In this document: piece after piece, positions 3,203-64,000 of the stretch
Position numbering within the stretch: the stretch's first letter is position 1
How the letters are laid out: each line of letters starts with the position of its first letter
Position numbers and translations under genes: made by a program
Notes under the pieces: generated by a model
Database searches by the model: none
Told to the model about the DNA's origin: nothing
Seen by the model: only the letters and a program-made list of their open reading frames with translations
Assembly: GCA_039740895.1 (NCBI GenBank)
Contig: JBCLGS010000001.1
Span: forward strand, 4,013-68,012
Direction: 5' to 3'
Origin: Parcubacteria group bacterium
GTDB taxonomy: Bacteria > Patescibacteriota > Minisyncoccia > Phycocordibacterales > DATDWN01
DNA length: 64,000 nucleotides

Positions 3203-3444
3203 ACAAGCTCCTTTCTGCTTATATGCAGACCAATCCTAACTTATTGTCAAAATCACAATTCTAAAAAGCATATTACCATACCTATTTATTATTGTCTAAT
3301 TTAAAATCCCCAGTTTTGTATTGACTTTAAAAACACCTAAAATAATGGCTTTGTTTAGCCGTTTATAGATAAATAGGGATGAGTACATTATTTCCCATAA
3401 TTCTATGTCGCAATTAGAACACGTGTTTTTATATTATATTGTAC

Positions 3445-3690
3445 TTATCCCCATTTCCCCAAATCACTAAGCGAATCAATTTCTATAGGCATGATTTCTT
3501 TACTCTCTAGAATTTTATTCAAATATATTTTTGTCATATCGAGCGGAATAAGTCCTGTAAAATTATGTGCCAATATTATTTCTGCATCTGATACCTCAAA
3601 AACCACACCAACACTTTGCATCACATGAGCATGGTTCGGTCTTTTATATGTCACTAATACAGTATCTCCTTTTTTATAATTTCTTGTCAT
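3445..3690 (-). CDS. Hypothetical protein (81 aa)
   Basis: ORF overlapping the upstream ORF by 17 nt, suggesting an operon. No known motif. Confidence 0.45.
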   Translation of the reverse strand: MTRNYKKGDTVLVTYKRPNHAHVMQSVGVVFEVSDAEIILAHNFTGLIPLDMTKIYLNKILESKEIMPIEIDSLSDLGKWG

Positions 3691-7256: not shown

Positions 7257-7286
7257 AAAGTGTATATTACCATATCTTTCGTTTTC

Positions 7287-7564
7287 TCAAAACATGTCTT
7301 TTTTGAGACATTGCACAGGATATTAGAAAACAACGACGAAATTAAAGAAAGACCGAAGCACTGTTTGACGAAGTCGTAATCGACGAGGTGAGAAGCGAAG
7401 CTTCGCAAGACCTTGAGTATTTTGTAATCAAAATGCAAAAGGTGTACTGCTCCTGTAAGGAGTTTGCGAGAGGTCTTCGTAATGAGGAAGATTGTTTTCT
7501 TGATATCCGAGCATAGCAAAAGCCCACCAGGGCTTTCCGTGTCTCAAAAAAGACATGTTTTGAG
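7287..7564 (+). repeat. Structured palindromic element C1 carrying the conserved core (7389-7460)
   Basis: 25-bp perfect terminal inverted repeats (ctcaaaacatgtcttttttgagaca / tgtctcaaaaaagacatgttttgag). A 72-nt core is shared with 25727-25802 and 63641-63717. Confidence 0.8.
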
Positions 7565-7568
7565 ATTT

Positions 7569-24167: not shown

Positions 24168-25586
24168 TTATAGCGTTTTTTCGATAATTCCTCCGCCAAG
24201 ACACTTATCCCCCCGCCCGCCTCGACCATGAGAGCGTGTCGGGCAGGCATCATACAAAACAGCAGACTGTCCAACCGCCACGCCATTTTGAGGTTTGTCA
24301 AACTTAATTACATAACATGCAGGACTTTTTTTTGAGCTATCGAAAAAATGTTCTTGCTTACGCAAAACATTATTTTCGATCCGATTTTCCTTGTTGGAAA
24401 ATCGTCTGCGTTCTCGTGCAGAAGGCTCTCTTCTGCAAGTCCTACTAATAGTGCATTTTTGTTTTTCTTGACGATATCTTATTCGGACTAGACATTTTAG
24501 AGGAAGTTTTGGTTCGGTGTTTGAAATAAAATGCATATCTGAAACAACAACTTCAGAAGTGCTGAAAACATCCTCAGCTTCAGTTTCTTTATTTGCGACA
24601 GTAATGGTATTTTTATCCAAATCTTTTGCTACCACAAAATACCGAGGCTCATTTGGAGTTTTTTTCAAGATATTATATCCCTGTCTAGCACCTATGGTGT
24701 AAAAAATTGCACCATCGTGATATCCAATAACTTCACTACTAGTATTCAAAACATCTCCCCGTTTAGTTTTTATAAAGTGAGATAAAAATTCACGCATATC
24801 AAGTTTGCCCAAAAAACAAACCCCTTGGCTGTCTTTCTTTGTGGCTGTTGGTAAACCAAACTTTTCCGCGAGCTTCCGAACCTCTGGCTTTGTCATCCCA
24901 CCAATCGGAAAAAGTGAACGAGAAAGCTGTTCTTGATTCAGTGTGTATAAAAAATATGATTGATCTTTATTTTTATCAACTGATTCATGGAGTTGATACT
25001 CGTAATTAAAAATCTCTTTCTCGTCATATCCTTTGGGGAGCACGGATATTTTTCTGTTGAAAAATTCCTCAAGTCTCGCCTGCCCGGCTTGCGAAGTCTC
25101 CCCAAAGGATACGACATCAACGAGATTTTTTTTACTTATCAATCCTATTTGACTATAGTGACCAGTGGCAATAAAATCTGCACCCATCTCCAGTGCCTTT
25201 TTTAAAAAGACACCAAATTTTACATATTTATTACAAAAAACATCTGGGTTTGGAGTTCGTCCCATTTTATACTCTCTTATCATATAGTCAGCAACTTCTT
25301 TCTTGTATTCAGCTTCACAATCCATGGTCAGGAAAGGAACACCGAGTGTGGCGCAAACCCGCATAGCACTTCGTCTTTCTTCCTTCCAATCACATGGCAA
25401 AAAATCTGGATGCCAGGTCTTCAAAAATACACCTGTCACGTCGAAACCATCCCTAAACCCCTCTGGGGTCGGGCGACCAAATAATTTTTCAAAATTATTT
25501 GGTGTAGCCTTTTGTAAGAGCGCCAAAGCCACAGAGCTATCCACTCCACCTGAGACACCTACGAACACCTTTGGCTTTTTATTCAT
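24168..25586 (-). CDS. mnmA: tRNA 2-thiouridine(34) synthase MnmA with in-frame insertions
   Basis: PP-loop VGVSGGVDSSVA, GHY and a C-terminal LGGGII. It is longer than I recall for typical MnmA, owing to inserted segments. Confidence 0.9.
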   Translation of the reverse strand: MNKKPKVFVGVSGGVDSSVALALLQKATPNNFEKLFGRPTPEGFRDGFDVTGVFLKTWHPDFLPCDWKEERRSAMRVCATLGVPFLTMDCEAEYKKEVADYMIREYKMGRTPNPDVFCNKYVKFGVFLKKALEMGADFIATGHYSQIGLISKKNLVDVVSFGETSQAGQARLEEFFNRKISVLPKGYDEKEIFNYEYQLHESVDKNKDQSYFLYTLNQEQLSRSLFPIGGMTKPEVRKLAEKFGLPTATKKDSQGVCFLGKLDMREFLSHFIKTKRGDVLNTSSEVIGYHDGAIFYTIGARQGYNILKKTPNEPRYFVVAKDLDKNTITVANKETEAEDVFSTSEVVVSDMHFISNTEPKLPLKCLVRIRYRQEKQKCTISRTCRREPSARERRRFSNKENRIENNVLRKQEHFFDSSKKSPACYVIKFDKPQNGVAVGQSAVLYDACPTRSHGRGGRGDKCLGGGIIEKTL

Positions 25587-25623
25587 TCACAAGTTATAAC
25601 ATAAAATTAGAAGATGGTAAAAT

Positions 25624-25865
25624 AAAACAAACTAAATAATACCTTTTCTGAGACCCCGCAGACCTGAAGCAGGTTTTGTCAACGACCCGACTGAAAGGAG
25701 GGCTCATTGACAAATTCAGGTCGAGGTGAGAAGTGATAGTATCACTTCGCAAGACCTTGAGCGTCTGTAGTCAGATGCGAAAGGTGTACTGCTCCTGTAA
25801 GGAGAGAATTCAAAACCCGCTGGGGTTTTGAATGTTCTCAGAAAAGGTATTATTTAGTTTGTTTT
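25624..25865 (+). repeat. Structured palindromic element C2 carrying the conserved core (25727-25802)
   Basis: ~30-bp terminal inverted repeats (aaaacaaactaaataataccttttctgaga / tctcagaaaaggtattatttagtttgtttt). Its end overlaps the mltG stop. Confidence 0.8.
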
Positions 25866-26883
25866 ATTTGAGATATTTTTGCTTGTTAATAATATGCTCA
25901 GCAAAAGTTTTTGCGTAGTGAATTGTGCCATCTTTTTCTGTGAGAAAATAAAGATAATTTGTTTTTATAGGTGTATATGCGGCAATGATAGCATCGATAC
26001 CGGGGTTTGATATTGGTCCTATAGGAAGACCTTTATTTGTGTAAGTATTGTAAGGAGAATCTATTTTCAAATCATCCAAAGTTAATTCGTATGTATTTTT
26101 TCCATTTATATATTTAAAAGTCGCATCAACTTGTAGTGGCATACCGATAGCAATTCTTTTCCATAAAATACCTGCCACTATTTGTTTGTCTTTAGGAAGT
26201 GCCTCACCTTCAAGGATTGAAGCCATAATGATGATATCACTAATTGATTTTTTCGTCGTTTGAAGATTTGCAACTTGGAGAATTTTCTTATTGAAATTAT
26301 TCTTCATCAATTCTATAATGTCTGCAGGTTTCGCACTCATCGATACAAAATATGTATCAGGAAATAAATAGCCTTCATATTTTTTGGCTGAATCAACGAA
26401 TTCTTTTTTATTAAATTTCAATAAATTTTTCTCAAGATAATCCCCTATCTGAAATACATTCCAACCTTCTGGTATTGTAATTTTAATTGTATTGATTTGA
26501 AATACTCCATTAACCAGTCTGCGTGCCAACATGAACGAACTTTCTTTCTTGGACAACAAATAATCACCAGCGATAACCTTTTTTTCACCACCAAAAAGAA
26601 TAACCAGCGAACGGAAAACTAATTCCGAACCAATAATATTCTTATTCTTCAAATCAACTGTAATGGACTGGAGAGATTCTCCAAAGCGTATTGTCAAAAC
26701 ATCTCCAACAGGAAAATTTGTTGGTGTAGTGAACAAAAGAACAGAAATAAATGCAAAAATAAAAGCTGTAATAAAAGCTAAAATTGCTTTTGGTCTGGTA
26801 ACTTTCTGATATTCCACATACACCTTAACCTTTTCAGACCAAGATTTCAAAAAAATAATATATTTTGGGTCTTCCATAGGCAA
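25864..26883 (-). CDS. mltG: Endolytic transglycosylase MltG (YceG-like)
   Basis: N-terminal TM and a YceG domain (LEGYLFPDTY, ASILEGEA, SPYNTYTNKGLPIGPISNPG). Confidence 0.88.
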   Translation of the reverse strand: MPMEDPKYIIFLKSWSEKVKVYVEYQKVTRPKAILAFITAFIFAFISVLLFTTPTNFPVGDVLTIRFGESLQSITVDLKNKNIIGSELVFRSLVILFGGEKKVIAGDYLLSKKESSFMLARRLVNGVFQINTIKITIPEGWNVFQIGDYLEKNLLKFNKKEFVDSAKKYEGYLFPDTYFVSMSAKPADIIELMKNNFNKKILQVANLQTTKKSISDIIIMASILEGEALPKDKQIVAGILWKRIAIGMPLQVDATFKYINGKNTYELTLDDLKIDSPYNTYTNKGLPIGPISNPGIDAIIAAYTPIKTNYLYFLTEKDGTIHYAKTFAEHIINKQKYLK

Positions 26884-35943: not shown

Positions 35944-36105
35944 ATGAAATTATTATTCACTCAAAAAGTCTATGCAGTAGTCAAAAGAATTCCTAAAGGA
36001 AAAACTTTAATGTATAAAGAAGTAGCACGACATGCTGGTAGTCCTCTTGCATTTCGTGCAGTAGGAAATATCTTAAAAAAGAATTATTTCCATTCTTTCC
36101 GTTAG
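35944..36105 (+). pseudogene. Truncated MGMT/Ogt-family DNA-binding domain (53 aa, active-site PCHR missing)
   Basis: Hand translation: MKLLFTQKVYAVVKRIPKGKTLMYKEVARHAGSPLAFRAVGNILKKNYFHSFR. It stops just before the position where PCHRV is expected. Confidence 0.7.
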
Positions 36106-36246
36106 GATGAGATTATACTTTTTGGGAGACTTGCGAACGCGACTGGCGTGAGTACGAGGAATTTTCTAGTAAGAAAATATCCGTGCTCCCAAGAAAACCT
36201 GTTCAAAACCAGAATTATTTGGTACTATCATGATAGGAGGAATTCA

Positions 36247-36853: not shown

Positions 36854-36939
36854 AATCAGACTATATATTCAAGTCAAAGTATTGTATATTAATTTTACAA
36901 CTAAATAGTTAGTAGTAGCCTAAACCAGTAATGATACAG

Positions 36940-37052
36940 GTATGGCAAAGGTCCAGTTAGACATCAAAGAACCAATCATGGGGTTGTCTAACTGGCCATA
37001 TCGGGAAACCGATATGAGTGACTTCGGTCACTACCTATGTGGTGGGCTTTTT
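36940..37052 (+). ncRNA. Candidate structured RNA or leader (unclassified)
   Basis: Three hairpins: an 11-bp stem 36953-36963/36985-36995; catatcgg-GAAA-ccgatatg (36997-37016); agtgac-UUCG-gtcact (37017-37032). A GGGCUUUUU tract follows. Confidence 0.45.
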
Positions 37053-60395: not shown

Positions 60396-62713
60396 TATAG
60401 TTTTTTTGATTTTAATCTTAATGAATTTGATACAACTGAGACAGAAGACATCGCCATGGCGAAGCCAGCAAAGACAGGATTTAGTAGCCAGCCAGTAAAA
60501 GGATAGAATAGACCAGCAGCAAGTGGGATACCTACTATATTATATATGAATGCCCAGAATAAATTTTGCTTGATACCTCGCATTGTCATTTTTGAAAGCT
60601 TGATCGCTTTGACAAGTTTTGATATATCTCCGCCAAGCAGAGTGATGCCAGCCGACTCTATAGCCACATCTGTGCCAGTACCCATTGCAATCCCAACATC
60701 GGCTTGAGCGAGAGCTGGAGCATCGTTTACTCCATCTCCTGCCATTGCTACGATTCGTCCCTGTGACTGCAACTCTTTAATTTTTGCCAGTTTATCTTGT
60801 GGCAGAACATGTGCGATAACTTCATCTATTCCAACAAGAGATGCGATATGTTTTGCTGCTTTTTCGTCGTCTCCGGTGAGCATAATCACTTTGATACCTA
60901 GTTTGTGGAGATTTTGAACAGCTTCCTTCGATTCTGATTTTACTTTGTCCGCCACCATCACAAAACCAAGTACTCCTTTTTTCGTTGCGAGAATAACCGG
61001 AGTTTTTCCCTGTGAAGTAAACTCATCAAGTTTTGTTGTATCAAAGGAAATATTGAGATCACTTATGAGTTTTGTACTACCGATAAAATATTCTGTTCCA
61101 TTAATCAACCCCTTTATTCCTTTACCTTGTAAATTTTCGAAATTTGAAACTGTATGGATATCAATTTTATTTTCCAAAGCATAATTTACAATTGCGTGAG
61201 CAATCGGATGCTCTGATTTCTTTTCAAGCGAAGCAAGTATCGCTACCAATTCCTTGTCTTTTTGATTTGAAAGATTGATGATATCTACAAGCGTCGGTTT
61301 ACCAATAGTGATGGTGCCTGTTTTATCAACAATGACCGTGTCTACTTTGTGGAGCTTCTCTAATGTTGCGGCATCCTTTACTAGAATACCTTCTTTAGCG
61401 CCTTTACCAACTCCGACAATAATTGCTGTTGGTGTAGCGAGACCTAAGGCGCATGGACATGCGATTACAAGTATCCCAACAAATGAGACAAGGCCGAAAG
61501 AAAGAGCCTGAGAGAAGCCCATGTATTGAGTGCCGACAATAAGCCATGTGCCGAGCGTCAGGAAAGCAATCACAAGAACAATCGGCACAAAAATACTTGA
61601 GATTTTATCTGCTAGTGCCTGAATAGGTGCTTTACTACCTTGTGCTTCTTCAACCATTTTTACAATATGAGCAAGTAGAGTTTCAGAACCAATTTTAGTA
61701 GCCTTGAATGTAAACGAGCCACTTGTATTTATAGTTCCGGACACAACAGTATCTCCAATCTTTTTTTGAATTGGCATTGGTTCGCCAGTAATCATTGATT
61801 CATCTACAAAAGAAGTTCCTTCAGTTAAAATTCCATCTACTGGAATTTTCGCACCGGGTTTAACAATGATTAGATCGCCATGCACAACATCGTTCACTGA
61901 AATTTCTACTTCCTCATTTACCCCGAGTGTAGCCGAGGGGCGAATGACAAGAGCAGTTTTAGCTTGCAAATTTAGAAGCTTTTCTATTGCATCACCTGTC
62001 TGTATTTTTGAGCGTGCTTCCAGATATTTACCGAGCGCGATGAAAGTAATAACTATAATCGTTACATCGTAATATTGATAATCAACATTTATAAAAGGTC
62101 GAAGAACTTCCTCAAAAGCAGAGACTGCAAAACTATATAGATAAGCGGCAACAGTTCCTATGCCGATGAGTGTATCCATATTTGCCTTTCCATATCGAAG
62201 AAATCTGTAGAAGCCGAGAAGGTAGGGTTTGCCAACCACGAAGAGGATATACGTAGCCATTAATGGTAACAAATGATGAAAGAATTCATATACAGTAGCA
62301 CCCATGGCTTCGACAACTTTGTACTCCGCAAGAATGTCCCAGCCCATAACAAAAGTGGCAAACACCGCAATTGGGATTGCAGAGATTACCAGTAATCTCT
62401 GACTTGCCACTTCAGCAAGTTTTTCTTTTTTTGACTGATTTAAGCCGAGATGTTGTGCATGCTCGGAGGCGCTCATACCTGGCATCTCGGATGACATTTC
62501 TTCTTGAATAAACGAATATCCTAAAGGTTCTATTTTTTTGCTCAATTCATTTAGATTTGTTTTAGATTCATCGAAAGACATCTTGGCTTTTTCTGTTCCA
62601 TAACTCACTTCTACACCTGAAACTCCATCTACTTTTTGTAGAGTTTTTTCAATAATACTTGCGCATGAAGCGCAGTGCATTCCTTTTACTCTATATGTTT
62701 TTGTATGATTCAT
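60395..62713 (-). CDS. copA: Copper-translocating P1B-type ATPase
   Basis: GMHCASC, CPC, DKTGT and GDGVNDAP. Confidence 0.95.
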
Positions 62714-62726
62714 ATATATTTAATAA

Positions 62727-63005
62727 TTATTTTCTTTTTAATCTATAAACTTTTAATATTTCTTCGGTTGCTACTGCGGGCTTTCCACTTTGCATTTGAT
62801 GGACTACGCAAATATTCAAATGGCTCTCCATCAGTGCATCTTCTACACCAGAAAGAGCCTGCTTCACCGCAGATGTCTGTGTAATAATATCAATACAATA
62901 TGTCCCCCTACTAAGCATTTCTTGAAGCCCTCTGACCTGGCCTTCAATTATTTTCAACCTTTGAATTAGCTTGTTATTATTATTCTCATTATTATTCATT
63001 GTCAT
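62727..63005 (-). CDS. csoR: CsoR-family metal-sensing repressor
   Basis: RLKIIEGQVRGLQEML...YCIDIITQ...H..C matches the CsoR/RcnR pattern. Confidence 0.88.
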   Translation of the reverse strand: MTMNNNENNNNKLIQRLKIIEGQVRGLQEMLSRGTYCIDIITQTSAVKQALSGVEDALMESHLNICVVHQMQSGKPAVATEEILKVYRLKRK

Positions 63006-63013
63006 ATTACCTT

Positions 63014-63044
63014 ATAGTATGTACCCCTAGGGGGTACTAGTCAA
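63014..63044 (-). promoter_or_regulatory. csoR-copA promoter with embedded CsoR-type operator
   Basis: The minus strand reads TTGACT-N-TACTAT with the perfect palindrome GTACCCCTAGGGGGTAC (63021-37) between the -35 and -10. Confidence 0.7.
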
Positions 63045-63170
63045 GTAAAATTGCCTGTGGATAAAAGTAGTCAAATCAAAGTCTCTTGAAAAATAGCCTC
63101 GACCTTGCATCATAAATAAAATAATGTAGAATGTAGTTTGTTCATATATTGTCAGATTCACATATATTTT

Positions 63171-63299
63171 GGGCCCGTAGCTCATCTGGTAGAGTGAGTT
63201 TGGGATAGGGACCCAAACGCAAGACCGGAGGCGCGACGGCGCTGAGGTGGGGTCGAAAGATTTTTCAGTAGAAAAATACTTTTGACCAGCATTTGCAAT
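63171..63299 (+). pseudogene. tRNA-Ala 5' fragment interrupted by a 92-nt structured insert
   Basis: The first 24 nt are identical to tRNA-Ala at 63319. An insert spans 63195-63286, then agcatttgcaat matches the anticodon-loop region. No 3' half. Confidence 0.6.
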
Positions 63300-63318
63300 T
63301 TGTTTAATATATTTTATT

Positions 63319-63391
63319 GGGCCCGTAGCTCATCTGGTAGAGCACATCATTTGCAATGATGGGGTGGCAGGTTCGAGTCCTGTCGGGTCCA
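63319..63391 (+). tRNA. tRNA-Ala(UGC)
   Basis: Folded by hand as a cloverleaf: acceptor GGGCCCG/CGGGUCC with G3-U70, anticodon loop UUUGCAA, T-loop UUCGAGU, discriminator A. CCA is not encoded. Confidence 0.9.
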
Positions 63392-63583
63392 CAGAAAAAT
63401 CCGCATTACAGCGGATATTTTTGGTGGTGTTTGTTTGAAAAAGTCAGAACCCATTTCGAGCAGAACCCCTAGCTTCGCACGCTCCGCGTGCGTGGTGGCT
63501 TGAAACTCAATCGTACGCTCCGATTGCGCCTCGGGCGCGCTCGCGGACTCGCGCGGGCAAGGGAACACTTGTGCAGAGCCAAA

Positions 63584-63746
63584 ACCCAAAAATTTTCCTT
63601 CCTTTCTGATTTAATTCGGCGGGGGGTGTGGGGGGTGAGGTGCGACAACTGGAAGCACCGCAAGATCTTGAGCATTTTGTAATCAAAATGTGAAAGGTGT
63701 ACAGTTTCTGTAAGAAAACGACAAAAAATGGAAAGGAAATTTTTGG
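63584..63746 (+). repeat. Structured element C3 carrying the conserved core (63641-63717)
   Basis: Outer stem ccaaaaattttccttcc / ggaaaggaaatttttgg. The core shares GCAAGAYCUUGAG, the attttgtaatcaaaat hairpin and AAAGGUGUAC with C1 and C2. Confidence 0.7.
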
Positions 63747-63942
63747 TTTTGCTTCGTCGCTTCAGTCTCCGAAAAGAGCAATCTAATTATGACATTTTTG
63801 TTTGCTCTTTTCTACATCTTCGCGGCGACCCGAGGCGCATACAATTCGGTTTGCGTTGTTGTTTGTAGCTACTTGGCGAAAATCGTGAATTTGATTTCGC
63901 AATTTTCTTTTTTCAATCCTCCAAATTTTTCTTTAGTGGCTT

Positions 63943-64000
63943 CTAACGAAGCGTACTGCCAACAAGAATGCCGTTGGCCCAATAGAATCCAGTACCGCCG
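63943..64000 (-). CDS. 3' end of a CDS running off the window
   Basis: The minus frame reads ...GGTGFYWANGILVGSTLR then stop. It is too short to identify. Confidence 0.25.
   Translation of the reverse strand, partial: GGTGFYWANGILVGSTLR

Follow-up and report, generated by a model that had tools for sequence, protein, structure and literature searches.

The stretch analysed here, 64,000 nucleotides (nt) of a Parcubacteria group bacterium (GenBank assembly GCA_039740895.1, contig JBCLGS010000001.1; hereafter the window, to whose numbering all positions refer unless a locus is named), carries near its right end a truncated extra copy of the gene for tRNA-Ala(UGC), interrupted by a structured element that we call W. 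We think it reasonably probable that W is a small, selfish type of insertion element, able to persist only when lodged in a partial and redundant duplicate of a stable-RNA gene; its mode of spread we infer rather than observe. We read it as selfish and non-autonomous because it and its relatives are multi-copy, nest at fixed internal sites, and include a weakly matching module that is tolerated in frame in a protein gene.

The interrupted tRNA-Ala copy and the W element

The truncated copy was first recognized in a sequence-only reading of this DNA, which took 63171-63194 to be identical to the first 24 nt of the intact gene. This proved correct; the window contains the 24-mer GGGCCCGTAGCTCATCTGGTAGAG exactly twice, starting at 63171 and at 63319, where chance would give 0 matches. 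Its further claims, that the anticodon region is matched again past the insert and that the 3′ half is absent, were likewise borne out. The 10-mer CATTTGCAAT, common to the post-insert spacer and the tRNA, spans the end of the 5′ strand of the anticodon stem, the loop, and the first base of the 3′ strand, and a word that long occurred in only 3 of 20,000 shuffles. Nucleotides 25 to 29 are missing between stump and remnant, and no second copy of the tRNA 3′ part lies elsewhere in the window. What is left, nt 1-24 and 30-39 only, is an incomplete cloverleaf without the acceptor 3′ strand and the T arm. ARAGORN and Rfam call no tRNA at the stump; the intact gene at 63319-63392 is the single tRNA that they call in the window.

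The duplication extends beyond the tRNA (Table 1). The repeat of the leader before the intact gene overlaps the -10 box of that gene, and because the untranscribed -10 box and the leader are both included, the duplication is a partial tandem one at the level of DNA. A retro-copy was ruled out on the same ground. The candidate -35 box of the intact tRNA is formed by the final six bases of W, which at this locus would happen to supply it. As a general outward -35 box the 3′ end of W was rejected, with a properly spaced -10 box in only 3 of 46 cases versus 8.6% of control hexamers, and the W-supplied site in the window may be incidental.

Table 1. Positions of the features discussed, in window coordinates
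Feature	Position	Strand	Basis
W element, complete copy	63195..63287	+	Covariance model R1, 94.8 bits, E=1.9e-22, model positions 1-95 of 95
tRNA-Ala(UGC) stump, nt 1-24 (acceptor 5′ strand and D arm through G24)	63171..63194	+	24/24 identical to intact gene
Stump remnant past insert: AG, then CATTTGCAAT (63290-63299)	63288..63299	+	Equals tRNA nt 30-39
Leader ATATATTTT	63162..63170	+	Sequence; recurs at 63307-63315 before intact tRNA
Promoter-like site TTCATA-16-TATATT before stump	63141..63168	+	Consensus scan; candidate
Promoter-like site for intact tRNA: -35 TTGACC, 17-nt spacer, -10 TAATAT	63282..63310	+	Consensus scan
Intact tRNA-Ala(UGC)	63319..63392	+	ARAGORN; Rfam tRNA, 63.9 bits
Terminator-like hairpin 3′ of tRNA	63399..63416	+	Consensus scan
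Family-C core copy 1	7386..7466	+	C model R2, 82.9 bits
Family-C core copy 2	25724..25808	+	R2, 89.3 bits
Family-C core copy 3, 240 nt downstream of tRNA	63633..63721	+	R2, 84.7 bits, E=5e-19
Weak partial R1 match, in frame within mnmA, aa 148-184	25037..25144	-	E=0.009; sequence and translation
Second weak R1 match, same subtype as the mnmA module	36105..36189	+	21.7 bits, E=8e-4

The insert was described in the sequence-only reading with the right layout and a length of 92 nt; it is in fact 93 nt long and reads TGAG-hairpin-GCAAGACC-GGAGG-hairpin-CTGAGGTGGG-long hairpin. From its 5′ end W consists of UGAG, hairpin 1 (63198-63218), GCAAG (63219-63223), a 3-bp helix ACC/GGU (63224-26 with 63246-48) that encloses a tandem G.A and hairpin A (63230-63243), GGG (63249-63251), and the long hairpin B (63252-63286). 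The terminal hairpin atttttc-agta-gaaaaat that had been seen by eye is real, although it is only the top of hairpin B, a 15-bp helix of 35 nt. That the insertion point follows GAG was also right, in that a discrete module lies after nt 22-24 of the truncated extra tRNA-Ala.

W belongs to a real structured family, of which the window holds a full-length member, and the independent support for this is the wider family together with the fold of the sequence alone. Full-length copies were gathered by a metagenome scan for GCAAGRCCGGAG...GAGGNGGG, and the module, of about 95 nt, has three hairpins around the conserved junctions GUGAG / GCAAG-RCC-GGA / GAGG-Y-GGG. Model R1 was built from an alignment, A2, of 19 sequences with the window copy as first row, so that the score of this copy in Table 1 is not independent; all four helices of the copy are matched, with no non-canonical pairs flagged. 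Across A2, 96.5% of cells are paired, versus 72% in shuffles and 35-47% with the partners slid; in 19 of 27 pairs both partners vary (compensatory changes), and the pair G65.U93 is kept in 18 of 19 sequences. Folded by itself, the window copy has a minimum free energy structure equal to that of the model, at -41 kcal/mol (z=-6.0), compared with a weaker -31.8 kcal/mol for the opposite strand. R1 matches 67 times in 100 metagenome loci and also in named metagenome-assembled genomes of Minisyncoccia, Parcubacteria and Zambryskiibacteriota.

W encodes no open reading frame (ORF). Its helices are conserved at the level of a single strand, the one that carries the G.U pair and that is also the tRNA's strand. 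They may matter in an RNA or in DNA that is single-stranded while the element propagates, and both the strand bias and the conserved G.U pair are compatible with either.

Recurrence at stable-RNA genes

The arrangement in the window is not an isolated one. We compared the flanks of 191 elements, of W and of a related hairpin family, C, with the tRNAs of the same loci (cited by the prefix L and a number). A sense tRNA fragment abuts the element as its 5′ flank in 14 cases, and in 12 of these the fragment starts at the tRNA 5′ end; in 12/12 of the latter an intact cognate tRNA follows 20-220 nt downstream. The 12 comprise Ala (the window), Thr (L008), Ile (L118), Glu (L127), Gln (L151, L166, L208 and L218), Phe (L055 and L174), Gly (L200) and Ser (L165). 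At seven loci the insertion junction lies just past nt 23/24, where the D stem ends on its 3′ side; at L200, L208 and L222 it follows nt 52-54 in the 5′ strand of the T stem, and for Phe it falls in the anticodon arm. At these tRNA junctions, 0 to 3 tRNA bases are replaced and there is no target duplication, and the tRNA's own GAG, AGG or GGG provides the purine triplet found before UGAG in every copy.

Past the element the pseudo copy resumes. It ends at nt 38/39 in five loci (the window, L008, L118, L151 and L218), at nt 46 in L166 and at nt 65-69 in L127, L200 and L208; with ends ranging from nt 38 to 69, a fixed end of the duplication at the anticodon loop is not general. The leader that is duplicated with it measures from 24 to about 50 nt (L208, L218), and near-complete copies of pseudo-tRNA-Glu in L127 and L089 carry two insertions each. 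Elements are also found downstream of tRNAs (His, Cys, Tyr, Gly, Glu), followed there by a tRNA copy that runs from the T loop to the 3′ end, and the junction, between GUGACC and GAAUCC, is the same as that of T-loop insertion. Direct repeats of at least 12 nt flank 17 of 55 W copies, versus 0 in shuffled controls.

In numbers, 23 of 62 W copies have a tRNA no more than 300 nt away, where random placement gives 7.0 +/- 2.2. With placement limited to roughly non-coding DNA, the expectation rises to 13.0 +/- 2.5, with a maximum of 21 in 2,000 trials. Nineteen of the 23 tRNA-linked copies are on the tRNA's strand. C cores behave similarly, with 30 of 119 near a tRNA versus 9.7 +/- 2.6 expected.

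The layout recurs at 5S rRNA. In L122 and L164, a 19-nt fragment of the 5S 5′ end is followed by W, 63 nt and the intact 5S gene, and then by a second W in antisense orientation. These observations fit the idea that the insert is a mobile or repeatedly copied module, in an arrangement that recurs at no fewer than eight tRNA identities and at 5S rRNA in other genomes. W copies on both sides of a 5S gene were noted at L122 9987-10383, L164 725-1111 and L178 2376-2469. As a separate observation, two W-carrying loci also hold group I introns (Rfam RF00028), at L132 5268-5519 (-) and L178 1369-1610 (+), one of them within 23S rRNA.

It had been proposed that the insertion itself might generate the duplication. 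This need not be the case. Partial duplicates in L013 and L061 have neither W nor C between the stump and the intact gene, running from nt 1-36/37 through about 44 nt to the intact gene, which implies that duplication can precede insertion. At both of these loci (L013 6394-6700; L061 200-760, minus strand) the intact tRNA, Ile and Pro, respectively, stands between the 5′ half copy ending at nt 36/37 and a copy of the 3′ part; the latter carries a T-loop insertion, and in L013 the two halves overlap by ATA. A different GC-rich hairpin insert of 28-60 nt was seen in the D loop of pseudo-tRNA-Phe or -Ala at L055 (about 4165-4100, minus strand), L174 (minus strand) and L235 (about 3545-3518), which suggests that further small element families occupy such stumps.

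The closest comparison for the window comes from a sister genome, GCA_039740855.1. Its contig JBCLGT010000013.1 (L235) encodes a homologue, 99% identical, of the copper ATPase next to the locus, and the contig shares the upstream flank of the window; synteny stops exactly at the tRNA 3′ end, and what lies downstream is unrelated. In window orientation, L235 has an extra tRNA-Ala stump, a GIY-YIG ORF, a stump of nt 1-24, W, the same remnant and leader, and the intact tRNA-Ala. The W there is identical to that of the window (R1 94.8 bits), so W predates the split of the two genomes. The extra stump has a 28-nt hairpin insertion in the D arm and ends at GGTAAT. The ORF, of 79 aa (3241-3480, minus strand), has its last codons and TAG stop within the next tRNA fragment; the stop codon is made by G7T, a change present in both flanking tRNA-Ala stumps. 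The slot, at nt 21/22, has thus seen the gain or loss of a homing-endonuclease-type cassette that brings its own duplicated stump. This cassette and a nested C core that differs between paralogous scaffold copies of L106 are the only cases in which presence and absence were seen.

An iterated profile search of the loci found eight GIY-YIG ORFs, five of which abut stable-RNA genes: tRNA-Ser (L023, with a pseudo copy upstream), tRNA-Ala, tRNA-Gln, tmRNA and a 23S insertion. No GIY-YIG homologue was found in the 64-kb window. Among the small ORFs of this kind, that of L201 (5964-6320, plus strand) lies directly upstream of tmRNA, that of L140 (7770-8081, minus strand) within a 23S insertion bounded by an inverted repeat, and those of L077 (6054-6401, plus strand) and L023 (7093-7386, minus strand) run into tRNA-Gln and tRNA-Ser, respectively.

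As for the surroundings in the window, the region left of the tRNA (41000-63000) looks island-like, with genes for a DNA methylase, a Z1/ResIII protein, a DUF2779 protein, a copper ATPase with CsoR, a DsbD-like protein and a cupredoxin. The copper ATPase is 82-84% identical across many Paceibacteria, in differing neighbourhoods, and the exact protein sequence of its CsoR-like neighbour is not on record. The window is part of a Paceibacteria-like chromosome, and its housekeeping genes include dnaK, grpE, rpsI, ligA, alaS, leuS and mnmA.

Modular relatives of W

The sequence-only reading related the insert to family C as a core-like module with a fully different first stem. Part of this stands. 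W and C have in common GUGAG-hairpin-GCAAGACC (within 63194-63226 in the window) and a helix with tandem G.A, and the pattern TGAG-N(10-40)-GCAAGAYC occurs four times in the window, versus 0.5 expected, all on the plus strand, in the three C copies and the W insert. The first stem does not set W apart, since UUUGGG/CCCAAA is a common hairpin-1 variant of bona fide C cores elsewhere, as in L066 and L019. R2, a model of C only, detects W weakly, at 15.9 bits (E=0.03), on the correct strand and in register, through the common 5′ third.

Beyond that third the two differ. The C cores of the window follow (G)GUGAG-hairpin-GCAAGAYC-UUGAG-hairpin-GAAAGGUGUAC-hairpin. W has the first part, (G)GUGAG-hairpin 1-GCAAGAYC, but lacks UUGAG-hairpin 2-(C)GAAAGGUGUAC with its helix ACCUU/AAGGU, and carries instead GGAGG-hairpin A-CUGAGGUGGG with the 3-bp ACC/GGU, analogous in architecture and different in sequence. 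The GNA-triloop hairpin 3 that directly follows GUAC in C is absent as well, and the 35-nt hairpin B takes its place. What W does contain after the common part is a scaffold, S, of the form CCGGAG-hairpin-CGAGGYGGG-GUC-GCGARA-long hairpin-UGUGACC, which occurs with or without a C core nested after its GGG. W is, in other words, the first third of C (UGAG-hairpin-GCAAGRCC) joined to S. It is a sister module of C and not a decayed C copy, and the notion of a degenerate C gives way to that of a full-length member of a conserved family separate from C.

These modules nest. L106 has paralogous copies of the same scaffold with and without a C core between GGG and GTC, and L055 and L092 are W elements with C nested inside. 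By an exact-pattern scan, the C core is present in more than 114 species-representative genomes, nearly all of them Patescibacteria, and the modular W/C family appears confined to that phylum. The C helices covary, with 98.3% of cells paired versus 82% in shuffles; the C junction sequences were fixed by the search pattern, and their conservation is uninformative. In the window, copy 1 is enclosed by a perfect 26-bp inverted repeat (7283-7308 with 7541-7566) and copy 2 by a perfect 34-bp one (25621-25654 with 25832-25868); both repeats are locus-specific, with one arm adjoining or running over the stop codon of the gene upstream (rpsI, yceG). Exact flanking inverted repeats of 12 nt or longer were found around 6 of 66 W copies and 15 of 101 C copies, with locus-specific sequences. 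Long closing stems are enriched (21/167 versus 0) but not universal (about 13%), and were dropped as a defining feature.

W proper is found mostly outside genes, and cases within protein genes are few and unconvincing. The module within mnmA is a related, weakly matching one that shares mainly a hairpin-B-like stem-loop and is bounded by CCTTTGGGGAG/CTCCCCAAAGG. It and the module at 36105-36189 form a subtype, GGGAG-ACUU..GCGA..-GAGGAAUUUUC-NAGNA-GAAAAUAUCCGUG-CUCCC. The MnmA protein concerned (24168-25586, minus strand; 472 aa) has four in-frame extra segments compared with E. coli MnmA (2DER), at about aa 26-46, 148-198, 382-427 and 447-458, and the segment at aa 382-427 has hairpins of the same kind between short inverted repeats. 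At least two of the extra segments are hairpin-rich and bounded by short inverted repeats, which resembles the behaviour of Rickettsia palindromic elements (RPEs), and one of them weakly matches the W model.

No known family accounts for W. Even at E<=10, Rfam 15 offered nothing that matches W, S or C, and scans at that threshold of 62000-64000, 25600-25880 and 63160-63320 returned nothing relevant. At the gathering threshold, the whole window yielded only the tRNA and LOOT, the latter a full-length LOOT RNA (RF03000) at 36917-37032 on the plus strand (73.7 bits; gathering score, 46.4), flanked by a 171-aa ORF and the gene for a trypsin-like protease. When W was compared by BLAST with collections of phages and plasmids, no match emerged. 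Several candidates raised by eye, namely a hammerhead (CUGAGG...GAAAG), group I or II introns, a k-turn, Y RNA, retron RNA, omega or bridge RNA and a split tRNA, were unfit by sequence or context and had no Rfam support. Literature searches found no description of W, C or S elements; the nearest were group I introns in tRNAs of Patescibacteria (PMC13011429).

A probable selfish insertion and its alternatives

We take 63171-63299 to be the promoter-proximal stump of a short tandem duplication of tRNA-Ala(UGC), comprising the -10 box, leader, nt 1-24 and nt 30-39, that carries W. Modules of this kind would favour stable-RNA genes as targets, at defined points just past the D arm (nt 23/24) and within the T loop. 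Insertion into a single-copy essential tRNA would presumably be lethal, and the copies that can be seen would then be those sitting in a redundant partial duplicate by an intact gene. Break repair or recombination at stable-RNA genes is a likely source of both the duplications and the spread, as suggested by the GIY-YIG cassette that occupies this slot in L235 and has a tRNA stump of its own, and small GIY-YIG enzymes possibly make the breaks that generate the duplications and allow spread.

Several points weigh against such a selfish element. Among the ORFs neighbouring the copies there is no transposase, integrase or reverse transcriptase, and a search for Y1/RAYT gave no match in 13,831 ORFs from 1.7 Mb of loci, a weak test with two approximate queries. 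No empty orthologous site without W was found, the sole close relative (L235) having W too, and so what speaks for the mobility of W itself is its copy number, its nesting and the recurrence of its junctions. Duplication and insertion are linked indirectly, given the duplicates of L013 and L061 that lack both elements, and the enrichment near tRNAs is only about 1.8-fold under non-coding placement. Co-orientation with tRNAs also fits co-transcription, and a multi-helix core with a fixed G.U across distant lineages exceeds what is typical of MITEs (transposable elements of the miniature inverted-repeat type) and would fit a functional RNA.

That last point leads to an alternative that we regard as unlikely, namely, that W is a noncoding RNA or leader that begins with the tRNA stump, is made from a duplicated stable-RNA promoter and acts as RNA, for example by taking part in processing, by binding a protein or by regulating the tRNA or 5S gene downstream; on this view the duplication would serve to capture a strong promoter. 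The strong covariation, the conserved G.U on the tRNA's strand, the co-orientation of 19 of the 23 tRNA-linked copies, and W, S and C junction sequences conserved across many lineages all speak for it, as do a stump that retains a promoter-like site and leader and is identical to the gene at 24 of 24 positions, and a W that is identical in the sister genome. Most copies, however, are away from stable-RNA genes, and in L061, L103 and L122 copies are antisense to the neighbouring RNA gene. Copies also nest and pile up in decaying pseudo-tRNAs (L127, L089), a weakly matching related module lies in frame within a protein gene, the outward promoter is not general, and there is no match to a known RNA family.

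Alternatively, the unit that moves could be a gene-restoring cassette, in which W, spacer, promoter and nt 1-24 enter a tRNA gene at nt 24/25, through recombination that is homologous or site-specific (Campbell-type or intron-less homing), and replace the displaced 5′ part, a mirror image of islands that carry the tRNA 3′ part. We would not expect this to be the explanation, though it has attractive features. The direct repeat is exactly the leader plus nt 1-24, the end of the element and the spacer form a complete promoter-like site for the restored gene, and the GIY-YIG unit of L235 has this very architecture, with G7T in both flanking tRNA copies resembling a co-conversion tract. Elements downstream of tRNAs are, in addition, flanked by 3′ fragments that start at the T loop or anticodon loop, which we take to be the classical att sublocations. 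Against a clean cassette stands the remnant, nt 30-39, that separates W from the spacer, as is expected for insertion within a duplicate. The ends of the pseudo copies vary (nt 38, 46, 65-69), 36 bp of homology is short for RecA-type recombination, no recombinase was found among neighbouring ORFs, and, as said, W does not in general supply an outward promoter.

Two known kinds of mobile unit bear on this comparison. Integrative elements that target tRNA genes, as Williams is said to have set out in 2002, duplicate part of the gene, with att at the anticodon loop, T loop or 3′ end. W-type inserts resemble them in being flanked by direct repeats of tRNA parts and in the T-loop or anticodon-loop start of the 3′ fragments. 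They differ in their size of about 100-300 nt, in the lack of an integrase among neighbouring ORFs, and in the varying ends of the repeats; moreover, in the window it is the 5′ part that is duplicated, with W inside the displaced copy. Free-standing GIY-YIG homing-endonuclease cassettes, such as the seg genes of T4, are matched by the ORF of L235, which occupies the same slot (nt 21/22) and is accompanied by a duplicated tRNA 5′ part of its own. W itself encodes nothing, and the endonuclease would be linked to its spread only as we infer it.

One can also envision W, C and S not as passive selfish DNA but as a new class of structured RNAs expressed from stable-RNA promoters, perhaps a self-inserting or self-processing ribozyme or the guide or partner of a nuclease or recombinase, that recognizes the architecture of tRNA and 5S at the end of the D arm and the T loop. 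If true, this would account for insertion at fixed points, for the conservation of junction nucleotides and for a G.U pair on one strand only, but we hold it to be quite improbable.

An intron of the tRNA-Ala gene, self-spliced or enzyme-spliced, can be dismissed almost entirely. Group I introns are common in tRNA genes of Patescibacteria (PMC13011429), and two W-carrying loci, L132 and L178, have them. Those introns share with W the host phylum and the target class, but they lie in the anticodon loop of complete genes and match Rfam Intron_gpI, while W is 93 nt, far below group I size, and follows nt 24 of a truncated copy. The missing 3′ exon already refutes an intron at this locus, where the interrupted copy lacks nt 25-29 and everything past nt 39; no Intron_gpI or other ribozyme match appeared at E<=10 in 63160-63320 or 62000-64000, and every interrupted copy that we examined has an intact gene alongside. 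Chance resemblance, or a decayed family-C copy, which the bare E=0.03 of the C-only model might suggest, is already refuted and has next to no probability left, with W matching the full length of its own model at 94.8 bits (this copy being one of the 19 seed sequences), dozens of full-length covarying relatives, and 24-nt and 10-nt tRNA matches far beyond chance.

Returning to W as a selfish insertion element, its likeness to known small repeats is partial in each case. Like RPEs, Correia, ERIC, BOX and RUP elements, it is short (those of this kind being about 100-150 nt), ORF-less, multi-copy and hairpin-forming. RPEs occur both between genes and in frame in protein genes of a reduced genome (PMC10969869); here, in-frame insertions are those in mnmA, and tolerance of this kind is seen only for the weakly matching mnmA modules (R1 E=0.009), whereas W proper is mainly extragenic. 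Unlike MITEs, W has ends (GUGAG ... GUGAC) that are not complementary, no conserved terminal inverted repeats and no short fixed target-site duplication, with long direct repeats instead, 20-100 nt from its 3′ end. From RPEs and MITEs alike it is set apart by a covarying multi-helix junction core across many lineages, by its modular, nesting habit, and by precise recurrent positions in tRNA and 5S genes with an intact copy always alongside. With REP/REPIN-RAYT and IS200/IS605-derived elements it shares strand specificity, definition by hairpins, the absence of target duplication, a short purine-rich motif (here RRG before UGAG) and tolerance of G.T-type pairs on one strand only; it differs in losing 0 to 3 target bases and in its make-up, with three to four helices and conserved junctions in place of a single subterminal hairpin per end, and the weak Y1/RAYT search described above bears on this likeness too. 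W unites features that no compared system has together, namely, a covarying core, modular nesting, fixed tRNA and 5S positions and a retained intact gene.

Patescibacteria have tiny genomes, and yet the window and more than 200 related loci carry modular hairpin elements. These single out stable-RNA genes as places where partial duplication and insertion are frequent. They account for puzzling tRNA fragments and for oversized proteins in these genomes, and they can mislead the annotation of tRNAs and genes. Should insertion at fixed points stem from recognition of tRNA architecture, or from a link to the small GIY-YIG enzymes of the same slots, W and its relatives would offer a testable model for how a selfish element persists in single-copy essential RNA genes, with an intact copy always left alongside.

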